From assembly GCA_963736005.1 (NCBI GenBank), contig CAVTNB010000001.1, positions 1,408,001 through 1,472,000 of the forward strand: DNA of 64,000 nt, in the 5' to 3' direction. This document shows positions 53,530-55,970 of this stretch, in pieces (the stretch's first letter is position 1; every line of letters begins with the position of its first letter). The translations under genes and the position numbers were made by a program. The notes below the pieces were generated by a model. That model was not told where the DNA came from. It was given only the letters and a program-made list of their open reading frames with translations, and did no database searches. The stretch is from an uncultured Pseudomonadota bacterium (GTDB taxonomy: Bacteria > Vulcanimicrobiota > Vulcanimicrobiia > Eremiobacterales > Eremiobacteraceae).

Positions 53530-55068
53530 ATGACCCTTTCTGATCCGCGCGTCGTTCTGTGCGTGCTCGACGGCTTCGGCATTTCCGACGAGACCGCGCG
53601 GCAACGCGATCGCCGCCGCGAAACTGCCGACGTATCGCGCGATGCTGGCCGCAAATATCCTCACTCCAGATCGGCGCCGCCGCAAGAAGCCGTCGGCTTG
53701 CCGCACGGCCAGCAGGGCAACAGCGAAGTCGGCCACCTCAATCTGGGCGCCGGCCGCGTCGTGCTTGCAAAGCGTCACCCGCATCGACAAGTGCGATCGA
53801 GGACGGAACGTTCGCGCAAAACCCGGCGCTCCAGCAATGCTTCGCGCACGTGAGGCGCACCGGCGGCACGTTCCATCTCCTCGGGCTCGTGTCGCCCGGC
53901 GGCGTGCACTCGTCGATGAAGCATCTGTATGCGCTCATCGACGCGGCAAAAGCGGCCGGCGTGCCGGTGAAAGTCGCGGCATTCCTCGACGGGCGCGACA
54001 CGCCGCCGCATAGCGCCGGCGCGTATCTCGAACGGCTGCAAGCCAAATGCGCGCAAGCCGGGAACGCGTCGATCTCCATGATTTCCGGACGTTACTTCGC
54101 AATGGATCGCGACAAGCGTTGGGAGCGCACAAAGGTTGGCATACGACGCGCTTGTCGAACGGCAAGGCGCTCAGCGCCGCAGGCTCGTCCAAGCGGCGAT
54201 CGATGGAGCATATGCCCGCGGCGAAAGCGACGAGTTTGTCGAAGCCGACGATCATCGGCACGCATCGACCCATCGTCACGACGGCGATGCGTGCTTCTTT
54301 TTCAACTTTCGCCCGACCGAGCACGCCAGCTCACGCGCGCTTTCTCGCAGCCAGATTTCGACGAATTCCCCGTCAAGCAGTTTCGCGATTTTGTTTTCGC
54401 CATCATGACGTTGTACGAGCAAGACTTTACGAATCCGGTAATGTTCGGAAAAATTTTCGAGAAGTGGACGCTGGGCGAAGTTGTCGCGAGGCGGGTTTGC
54501 CACAACTTCGACTGGCGGAGACCGAAAATATGCGCACGTAACCTACTTTTTTTCCGGTGGGCGCGAGGAGCCGTTTGACCTGGAAGACCGGATTCTGGTG
54601 CCGTCGGCGCGTGACGTCGGCACGTACGATCATCTTCCCCAAATGCGGGCACGCGAAATCACCGATAGGGCCGTGGAAGCGATCCGCGTCCGAAACGCTA
54701 TCCGCTGATCGTCATGAACTACGCCAATCCCGACATGGTGGGTCACACGGGTAAGTGGGATGCGATCATCATCGCGCTTGAGGTTGTTGATGAATGTCTC
54801 GACGCGGCTCGAGGCGGCCGTCCTCGAGACCGGCGCAATCATGCTCGTCACCGCAGATCACGGCAATGCGGAGGAAAAGATAGATCTCTCGACCGGCAAA
54901 GAGCTAACCGCCCACACGTGCAATGACGTGCCGCTCATCGCCGTCAGCAACCCAAGACTTGGCGGGCTGAAGAGCGGCGGTAAACTCGCCGACGTCGCTC
55001 CATGCATCTGTCAGATTTTAGACTTGCCACAGCCGGCCGTAATGACCGGTCACTCGCTGCTCACGTAG
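53530..55068 (+). CDS. gpmI: 2,3-bisphosphoglycerate-independent phosphoglycerate mutase (frameshifted)
   Basis: [63 protein letters not shown]. Confidence 0.95.
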
Positions 55069-55074
55069 TCTGCT

Positions 55075-55749
55075 CTATCCCAACCGCCAAAAATCTCCAC
55101 TGAGCCCCAACTCCGCAAACCTCGCCTGCGTTTCTTCCAGGGTGAAGCGCCGCCAGTTTGGGTCGCGTCGGTCGCCACTGTACCATGCGTTGGCAAGTCG
55201 CCAGCATTGGCCGAGCGGAAGCACGGCACCGCGATCGAAGCGCCAATCTTTGCACCATTTCGCAACGTGCTCTTCCGACCGGAAGAGGAGCATGGTCTTT
55301 CAGTTAAAGACGATGTCGTCCCACCATCGCGCCGCAGGAAGAGCGAAATGAGCAATGCGTTCGTCGTCATCAGTACAGTCGTCCGGTGCTTGCAACGTCA
55401 TGGCCGTGCCGCAGCAGCCACATGAAGTTTCAATGCGGGCTTTGCCTCGGAGCATTGCTGCGATGCCCATTGCATCCCAGATGCAGTTGCCATACCAAGA
55501 AAATTGGCCAATGCTCACAAAAAACGGGGTCGGCACTGCCGAGAACGGATTCGCCATGAGGATCTCGCCATTGCGTTGCAAGACGAACATGTGCGCGTCA
55601 CTCAGCCGGCGCAACGCGTCGCGGATATTTGCCTGCGTCGTCCCAGTCGTTGAGACCAGCGTGGAAATCAATGGTACCGTGCCGCCGGCCATGAGCTTTT
55701 CGTAGACCAATCGGCGCAACTCTAAATCTAACGCTTGCAGATCTGCCAT
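55075..55749 (-). CDS. Organomercurial lyase MerB-like protein with in-frame TGA (candidate selenocysteine) at 55300-55302
   Basis: N-terminal HTH-like region, PFS..PTPF, NCIWDA (CxxD); ORFs 55300-55749 and 55075-55293 are in one frame separated only by TGA-AAG-ACC. Confidence 0.8.
55268..55292 (-). promoter_or_regulatory. Candidate bacterial SECIS hairpin
   Basis: CTCTTCC-GGTC-GGAAGAG; loop starts 19 nt after the TGA and begins with G. Confidence 0.65.
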
Positions 55750-55805
55750 ACGCTTTCGTGTTTGACAGTCGCTGCCCCGATCACTCGCGGGTGCAGGAGC
55801 GCGTT

Positions 55806-55830
55806 AGCGGACCTAAAGGTCCGCTGCTAC
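55806..55830 (-). repeat. Intergenic REP family B copy (GTAGC-AGCGGACCT-TT-AGGTCCGCT)
   Basis: Perfect 9-bp arms after GTAGC; matches the coding copies except for one loop base. Confidence 0.85.
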
Positions 55831-55970
55831 ATCCGCGACTTGACCGACTACACGTCTGCGGCGACACGAACGTAGCGCTCGTTCACAATTTGGCCATAAC
55901 TTGAGCAGCGGCGCGGTCAAACATCGCCTATAAGGTTAGCCTCCCACGAATCTTACGGAGGCTTTCTTCG

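Follow-up and report, generated by a model that had tools for sequence, protein, structure and literature searches.

A 64,000-nucleotide stretch of the genome of an uncultured Pseudomonadota bacterium (GTDB lineage Vulcanimicrobiota, Eremiobacteraceae; assembly GCA_963736005.1, contig CAVTNB010000001.1, positions 1,408,001 to 1,472,000; hereafter the window) carries on its minus strand, at 55075..55749, a gene that very probably encodes an intact but mis-annotated selenoprotein of the MerB superfamily, with selenocysteine (Sec) at residue 150 of a MerB-type active site. Judging by the pattern of conservation across genomes, Sec is almost certainly inserted at the in-frame UGA of codon 150. The gene had been singled out from the letters of the window alone as coding for a Sec-containing MerB-like protein, and this original prediction is supported, among other observations, by the conservation of the TGA, the covariation of a hairpin that follows it, and the presence of the Sec machinery in the host genome. 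The family has relatives in at least 595 species-representative genomes and matches to thousands of database proteins.

The in-frame TGA, its hairpin and the selenocysteine machinery

Two open reading frames (ORFs) on the minus strand, 55300-55749 (149 amino acids, ending at TGA) and 55075-55293 (72 amino acids), lie in one and the same frame. As had been proposed, they make up a single 224-codon unit with the junction WWDDIVFN-TGA, whose coordinates and sequence we verified. When the TGA is read as U, the product is a protein of 224 residues that reads ...WWDDIVFN-U150-KTMLLFRSEEHV... across the junction. The Pfam model of MerB gives 93 bits with the read-through protein, as against 54 and 21 bits with the two halves taken alone, the second of which falls below the 27-bit cut-off. 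The features of this MerB-like gene are the following:

55075..55749, minus strand: complete coding sequence of the MerB-like selenoprotein, from ATG (55749-55747) through 224 sense codons including one UGA to the stop TAG (55077-55075); homologous to its orthologues over residues 1-224

55300..55302, minus strand: in-frame TGA, codon 150, predicted to be read as selenocysteine and equivalent to MerB Cys159; the column is TGA in orthologues and Cys in distant homologues, and is placed by profile alignment to the MerB C160S chain

55270..55287, minus strand: SECIS-type hairpin (selenocysteine insertion sequence) with the 7-bp stem CTCTTCC/GGAAGAG and the loop GGTC, inside codons 155-160 (LFRSEE)

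55474..55485, minus strand: codons 89-92, C-I-W-D, with Cys89 and Asp92 equivalent to MerB Cys96 and Asp99; invariant in the 87-sequence alignment described below and aligned to MerB chains

55411..55422, minus strand: codons 110-113, C-G-C-C, with an invariant Cys110 equivalent to MerB Cys117 and Cys113 present in at least 90% of sequences; from the same alignment and the alignment to MerB chains

55180..55545, minus strand: MerB domain PF03243, residues 69-190, which crosses the TGA; matched over profile positions 1-125 of 126

55597..55734, minus strand: N-terminal three-helix, winged-helix-like region, residues ~6-51, homologous to the N-terminal part of MerB2, with modelled helices at 6-20, 28-35 and 39-51

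55078..55179, minus strand: C-terminal extension, residues 191-224, beyond the MerB-aligned region; confidently modelled, with a helix at 204-213, the MerB chain alignments stopping near profile position 187

To characterize the TGA column we collected relatives at several phylogenetic depths. Among 41 related genomes, 11 (the window's own included) contained a match, the eleventh being a 68-residue fragment at the end of a contig; the ten full-length matches, at 35-85% protein identity, have exactly one TGA each, always in the same column. A scan of species-representative genomes recovered at least 598 stretches, of which at least 595 are confirmed relatives, and in the best 80 of these, which we examined, the codon is TGA without exception (80/80). 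Three records occur both among the 80 and among the related-genome loci, and the two sets together amount to 87 distinct loci, the window counted among them. Across these 87 loci the 74 residues downstream of the TGA are strongly conserved and no other stop interrupts the frame. The record titles of the relatives name Vulcanimicrobiota/Eremiobacteraeota, Acidobacteriota, Chloroflexota, Gemmatimonadota, KSB1, Thermoleophilia and others. A sample of 401 genomes of the window's own phylum yielded matches in 23, of which 18 have the TGA, three are longer and lack a stop, and two are fragments that end short of the column; without the unpublished genomes G256 and G333 (both TGA) and G271 (no stop), the counts are 16 with TGA and two with no stop.

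The protein databases present the same family in truncated form. Among the matches listed for the nearest database proteins, 118 of 120 cover at most 67% of the query, and the nine of these that we aligned all stop at the residue preceding the TGA, which is the splitting of the gene by standard callers that the original prediction had anticipated. A profile search of all proteins returned 4047 matches at an e-value of 0.001 or better. Among the 150 top-ranked cluster representatives, 79 break off precisely at the TGA column, 63 have a Cys there and the remaining eight show other states (two W; one each of A, Y, H, P, R and a gap), so that Cys occupies the column in 63 of the 71 representatives that are not truncated. 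A column 150 occupied by either Sec or Cys is the pattern expected of a selenoprotein family. The proposed check, that homologues should show Cys or TGA at this position, thus came out as TGA in 10/10 and 80/80 loci of the two genome sets and Cys in distant homologues. Given that the gene calls lose the final third of the enzyme together with its catalytic (seleno)cysteine, surveys of merB-like genes and of selenoproteins alike are bound to miscount this family.

We also constructed a tree of 149 representatives from the shared N-terminal 145 residues, one row with fewer than 110 residues in that region having been dropped. It is poorly resolved, with 17 of 146 inner branches well supported; the Sec and Cys forms are clustered in it, and at least four changes of state are forced. 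On this sequence-based view, the swap between Sec and Cys at a predicted metal-binding catalytic residue appears to have changed state several times within the family.

Three side observations concern the records in these collections. Three full-length database proteins (P0006, P0127 and P0136) have a Trp in the Sec column, most likely the product of a TGA=Trp table used in gene calling rather than of a true TGG. In the closest orthologue (L006, genome G002; 84% identity), the gene's own terminator is a TGA that lies 74 codons after the Sec TGA; the same codon is there read two ways in one gene, depending on the hairpin. Finally, the public records L016, L017 and L018 match, at 100% identity, loci from genomes ranked in the window's own genus or family, and they were deposited under contradictory labels (Vulcanimicrobiota, Candidatus Acidiferrales and Proteobacteria); no fewer than two of these labels of metagenome-assembled genomes must be wrong.

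The original prediction had further pointed to a perfect 7-bp hairpin with a G-initiated loop 19 nt past the TGA, a geometry befitting a bacterial SECIS. We verified its sequence (CTCTTCC at 55287-55281, GGTC at 55280-55277 and GGAAGAG at 55276-55270) and its placement, with the hairpin starting 12 nt past the TGA and the loop following after 19 nt. It is present in the minimum-free-energy fold of the region, and the 18-mer alone folds at -9.1 kcal/mol. Covariation was then assessed over 87 distinct 48-nt stretches, which align without gaps. The seven stem pairs are formed in 94.3% of cells, compared with 86.2 +/- 0.6% when partners are shuffled (none of 500 shuffles reaches the observed value), and sliding the partner by 1-3 columns lowers the pairing to 40-57% of cells. 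Changes on both sides of a pair occur in 32 cells versus 5.1 expected; the compensatory swaps include C-G to G-C in 12 loci (pair 18/31) and C-G to U-A or A-U in nine (the closing pair). Of the 87 loci, 78 have GGTC as the loop. In three relatives whose codon is TGC or TGT instead of TGA (L120, L123 and L121, the last from an unpublished genome) both the hairpin and the FRSE peptide that it encodes are missing, and the Cys-type representatives are variable at the hairpin-encoded residues. These observations fit a hairpin under an RNA-level constraint that would be tied to the UGA, the direct comparison with Cys forms comprising three loci.

Known SECIS elements of bacteria (that of E. coli fdhF and the bSECIS consensus, for example) are likewise stem-loops that lie just past the UGA within the coding sequence and present a small loop beginning with G about 20 nt away. 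The element of the MerB-like gene differs from them in its stem of only 7 bp, its loop of 4 nt (GGUC) and its lack of an Rfam match, and its binding by SelB is putative. In the mechanism that we propose, SelB carrying Sec-tRNA(Sec) would bind the GGUC-loop hairpin that starts 12 nt past the UGA, and UGA-150 would be recoded as Sec, giving the protein of 224 residues instead of a 149-residue fragment.

The host genome (2.84 Mb in six contigs, 84% complete) has the corresponding machinery. We recovered selA (443 bits), the wing domain of SelB (64 bits; in a 673-codon frame immediately downstream of selA) and selD (367 bits), all above their cut-offs, as well as a tRNA-SeC with the anticodon tca on contig C2; a genome-wide search for the sel genes, proposed along with the prediction, has therefore found selA, selB, selD and tRNA-Sec. 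In this genome selD is a selenoprotein gene too (G000:C1:2000550-2001494, minus strand), with an in-frame TGA in ...SSCAG-U-ASK..., its usual active-site position. The selD UGA is followed by a 6-bp hairpin whose GUGC loop begins 21 nt after it, a layout like that of the MerB-like gene.

Fold, active site and relation to MerB and SaoL

AlphaFold2, supplied with the 87-sequence alignment, modelled the read-through protein as one compact domain with a predicted local distance difference test (pLDDT) score of 96.9 and a predicted template modelling (pTM) score of 0.92, with 220 of the 224 residues at or above a pLDDT of 90. Foldseek searches with this model recovered MerB or MerB2 as all of the top 11 PDB matches (5c17, E 4e-11; 3f2f and 3f0o, E ~1e-9), with template modelling (TM) scores of 0.55-0.67. 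Alignment of the family profile to PDB chains (5c17, E 5e-20) equates C89 with C96, D92 with D99 and C110 with C117 of MerB, and places column 150 on the Cys that is left in the C160S mutant chain of MerB, that is, C159. Both active-site assignments of the original prediction, which had taken NCIWDA for the first MerB site and the TGA for the second MerB Cys, are thereby upheld. Four positions (C89, D92, C110 and column 150) are invariant in the 87 sequences; C113 is present in at least 90%. In the truncated, Sec-type database representatives C89 and D92 are kept in 79 of 79, and 68 of the 79 have C110 as well as C113.

The remaining parts of the protein show more distant or family-specific features. 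The N-terminal region has a weak match to GntR in Pfam (E 0.019); the alignment to the MerB2 chain begins at MerB2 residue 25, and the weak fold matches of this region include N-terminal domains of the DtxR type. The C-terminal extension contains the conserved residues D193, R194, W199, E206, G215, F220 and W221.

In MerB the metal is bound by a pair of cysteines and an aspartate protonates the leaving carbon. By analogy, Sec150, in the place of MerB Cys159, would form a MerB-type site together with Cys89 and Asp92, in which Cys89 and Sec150 may bind the metal and Asp92 may supply the proton; the most likely reaction would be the protonolysis of a carbon-metal bond like that of organomercurials. 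Compared with Cys, a selenolate in this place should be the stronger nucleophile at neutral pH and should hold soft metals more tightly.

A second pattern is seen in some of the Cys-type homologues among the representatives P0122-P0271, in which Asp92 is replaced by Cys and C110/C113 are also replaced, often by a hydrophobic residue and Glu (CC-L/I/A-E). At least 14 of the 63 show it, and it was found in no truncated representative among the 79 examined. It suggests that the CC-L/I/A-E homologues may be a subfamily with a different metal site.

As regards characterized MerB proteins, the MerB of plasmid R831b (1S6L, 3F0O, 3F0P and 3F2F) and MerB2 (5C17) share with the protein of the window the fold and the equivalents of C96, D99, C117 and C159. 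They differ from it in that it is predicted to have Sec in place of Cys159 and has an extra conserved C-terminal segment of ~34 residues; the sequence identity is 18-20%, and neither a mer operon nor MerA was found with it. The canonical organomercurial lyase MerB (EC 4.99.1.2), as defined by the NCBIfam equivalog scores, was rejected as its identity, the protein lying below both cut-offs. No model of NCBIfam release 20 reached its cut-off on the read-through protein.

That MerB-like selenoproteins might already have been reported was foreseen in the original prediction, and one such protein has been published. SaoL (NF040728) is a MerB-like organometallic lyase selenoprotein of the SAO locus in Clostridioides difficile and other anaerobes, with a Cys-Sec dipeptide whose Sec aligns to MerB Cys159, and its authors, Haft and Gwadz, hold that its substrates are not to be assumed from MerB homology (10.1101/2022.07.06.499078). 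SaoL and the protein of the window both belong to the PF03243 superfamily, have a Sec (here a predicted one) at MerB Cys159 and equivalents of Cys96 and Asp99, and are truncated at the UGA in databases.

The two differ in several respects. The NF040728 model scores 29.7 bits here, against a cut-off of 140, and matches residues 33-122 only. Where SaoL has the CU dipeptide, the protein of the window has N-U, and the residue preceding the Sec position in the 79 truncated representatives is T in 69, N in six, A in two, S in one and D in one, never C. About 50 residues follow the Sec in SaoL, compared with ~74 here. SaoL is encoded in the nine-gene SAO locus, and nothing like that locus lies beside the MerB-like gene; in the host genome the best SaoP match reaches 70.4 bits against a cut-off of 295, and SaoB has no match there, its model having also matched no control genome. 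The hosts described for SaoL are strictly anaerobic, whereas the relatives collected here are titled as soil-type lineages (Acidobacteriota, Chloroflexota, Vulcanimicrobiota and Gemmatimonadota). Identity as SaoL was accordingly rejected, on the score below the NF040728 cut-off and the lack of a Cys-Sec dipeptide.

In the accessible parts of two reviews of prokaryotic selenoproteins, from 2022 and 2026 (PMC9312934 and PMC13188914), the SaoL type is the only entry under MerB. A full-text literature search found no description of the present clade, supplements and most subscription journals lying outside that search, so that a prior mention is possible. It is apparently a second clade of MerB-type selenoproteins, distinct from SaoL, much more widespread and uncatalogued.

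Competing explanations and possible function

A number of results weigh against reading the gene as a Sec-dependent enzyme of the MerB type. The scores with both MerB equivalog models fall well short of the cut-offs (NF009710, 35.3 bits against 193; NF033555, 28.4 against 200). In the host genome no MerA was found at cut-off, the best TIGR02053 match (367.5 bits against 454.45) lying away from the gene; no mer operon surrounds the gene, and ORF clustering over the 87 loci disclosed no neighbour conserved across phyla, the best cluster being present in 10 of 87 and devoid of a Pfam match. Since the host genome is 84% complete, gene absences from it are provisional. The very strong Hg-Se bond could, moreover, hinder the release of product. 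With respect to the hairpin, a single-sequence fold of 71 nt is ordinary (z = -0.02, with 98 of 200 shuffles at least as stable), and a search of the whole window with Rfam at gathering thresholds matched no family and no catalogued SECIS. As the hairpin lies in coding sequence, for L-F-R-S-E-E, selection on the protein may confound the signal, and part of its conservation could come from coding constraint; the covariation and the comparison with the three Cys loci argue otherwise. The hairpin is raised above chance by the conservation of the TGA column and of the covarying pairs across loci.

Three explanations dispense with Sec altogether. The TGA might be a real stop, leaving either two small genes (a 149-amino-acid MerB fragment and a 72-amino-acid ORF with its ATG at 55293) or a split gene or pseudogene. 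An ATG does lie two codons past the TGA and the public gene calls do end there, but we consider this highly improbable: the frame and the TGA column persist in 87 loci that share 35-85% identity, in which no further stop occurs and the downstream part is strongly conserved; stop-free homologues have Cys in the column; both halves are predicted with confidence as one fold; and a nonsense mutation with a covarying hairpin would not persist in every lineage. Least credible of all is an assembly or sequencing error for TGC or TGT, for which one could point to the frameshifts in the adjoining gene. This gene, gpmI (2,3-bisphosphoglycerate-independent phosphoglycerate mutase; iPGM_N and Metalloenzyme domains; 53530-55068, plus strand, convergent with the MerB-like gene), is spread over at least three frames, and its orthologue in L016 is a single frame of 433 amino acids; the breaks are probably indel errors of the assembly and not signs of a pseudogene. 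The errors seen are indels, not substitutions, and the MerB-like gene can be aligned to its orthologues from residue 1 to residue 224 without a frameshift, in keeping with what had been claimed of the window's errors and of this gene. At the base itself, whose verification had been advised, a contig of 10,196 nt from another public run (X1; depth 27), a DNA contig and not raw reads, is identical over 55300-55302; its 28 differences over 55072-55950 mark it as a related strain, so that it provides an independent near relative with the same codon. Runs X2-X4 span short pieces of the stretch, and the comparison rests on the long X1 contig; the listing of sequencing runs with this DNA showed none of RNA. 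TGA likewise stands at this position in G001, G002 and G003, which belong to the same genus. Finally, the UGA might specify an amino acid other than Sec (Trp, Cys or Gly, for instance), through reassignment of the code or near-cognate read-through, and the W in the column of P0006, P0127 and P0136 could be quoted in favour of this, although it may reflect a TGA=Trp translation table. This too is very unlikely. TGA is the commonest terminator in the host genome among frames of at least 300 codons (612 of 1596) and ends the neighbouring flgF, flgG and sigma-factor genes, and it is not reassigned there; the genome has a complete Sec system, with selD itself containing an in-frame TGA; and plain read-through needs no conserved hairpin at the distance of a SECIS.

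A different kind of alternative accepts the selenoprotein and the MerB fold but not the chemistry: the protein would not be a carbon-metal lyase and would instead bind metal or selenium, serve in trafficking or sensing, or act as an enzyme on a non-metal substrate. This has an appreciable, if lesser than even, chance of being correct. No MerA, mer operon or conserved partner genes were found, the scores lie far under the MerB equivalog cut-offs, and the family has its own conserved 34-residue C-terminal extension and a conserved second cysteine, Cys113. Haft and Gwadz voice the same caution about SaoL (10.1101/2022.07.06.499078). On the other side, the Cys/Asp/(Se)Cys triad is invariant in the 87 sequences; its Asp acts in MerB as the proton donor and not as a simple ligand. 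C89 and D92 are found in 79 of 79 truncated representatives.

Returning to the reading of the protein as a lyase, the conserved catalytic residues and the fold make activity on some organometal substrate an evenly balanced proposition, and organomercurials are a tentative and somewhat doubtful candidate for its physiological substrate. The occurrence of the Sec form in bacteria in which no MerA was found points to an organometal- or metal-handling role outside classical mercury resistance. More speculatively, and with a probability well short of even, the clade may be an organometal demethylase that depends on selenium but not on MerA and is common in soil and freshwater bacteria of aerobic habit (Acidobacteriota, Chloroflexota, Vulcanimicrobiota and Gemmatimonadota), its Sec at the position of Cys159 conferring a chemistry or substrate range beyond that of the Cys-type MerB. 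Its candidate substrates would include methylmercury at very low concentrations, or organo-arsenic, organo-tin or organo-lead compounds. If such a demethylase exists and methylmercury is among its substrates, it would be a possible agent of demethylation in places with few mer operons, and the cycles of selenium and mercury would be connected through an enzyme. Such a clade would also be invisible to merB surveys, every gene call being truncated.

Genomic neighbourhood and minor observations

The MerB-like gene adjoins gpmI, flgF/flgG and a sigma-factor gene and stands alone; it is the sole gene of the MerB family in the host genome. The synteny of its neighbours is local to lineages: gpmI and the flagellar rod genes accompany it in the window's genus, and in one acidobacterial group the local neighbours code for a phosphoenolpyruvate carboxylase, a GGDEF protein and an S-adenosylmethionine synthetase. 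Given the lack of a cross-phylum partner gene, we propose no function based on operons. The only recurrent neighbour on the same strand is an ORF of ~350 amino acids, directly downstream in ten loci (L046, L058, L067, L073, L077, L078, L088, L090, L091 and L092), which are titled Acidobacteriota, Terriglobia or Terriglobales; it has no Pfam match at an e-value of 1e-5.

Upstream of the gene, in the divergent intergenic region toward flgF, there is a perfect palindrome, AGCGGACC-N4-GGTCCGCT, at 55806-55825, that is, 57-76 nt upstream of the ATG. It has 117 copies in the 2.84-Mb genome, one of them just after selD, compared with none for the reversed control, and the summed contig depth of run X1 jumps to ~1600 over 55800-55835. 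The palindrome looks like a dispersed repeat of the repetitive extragenic palindromic (REP) type.

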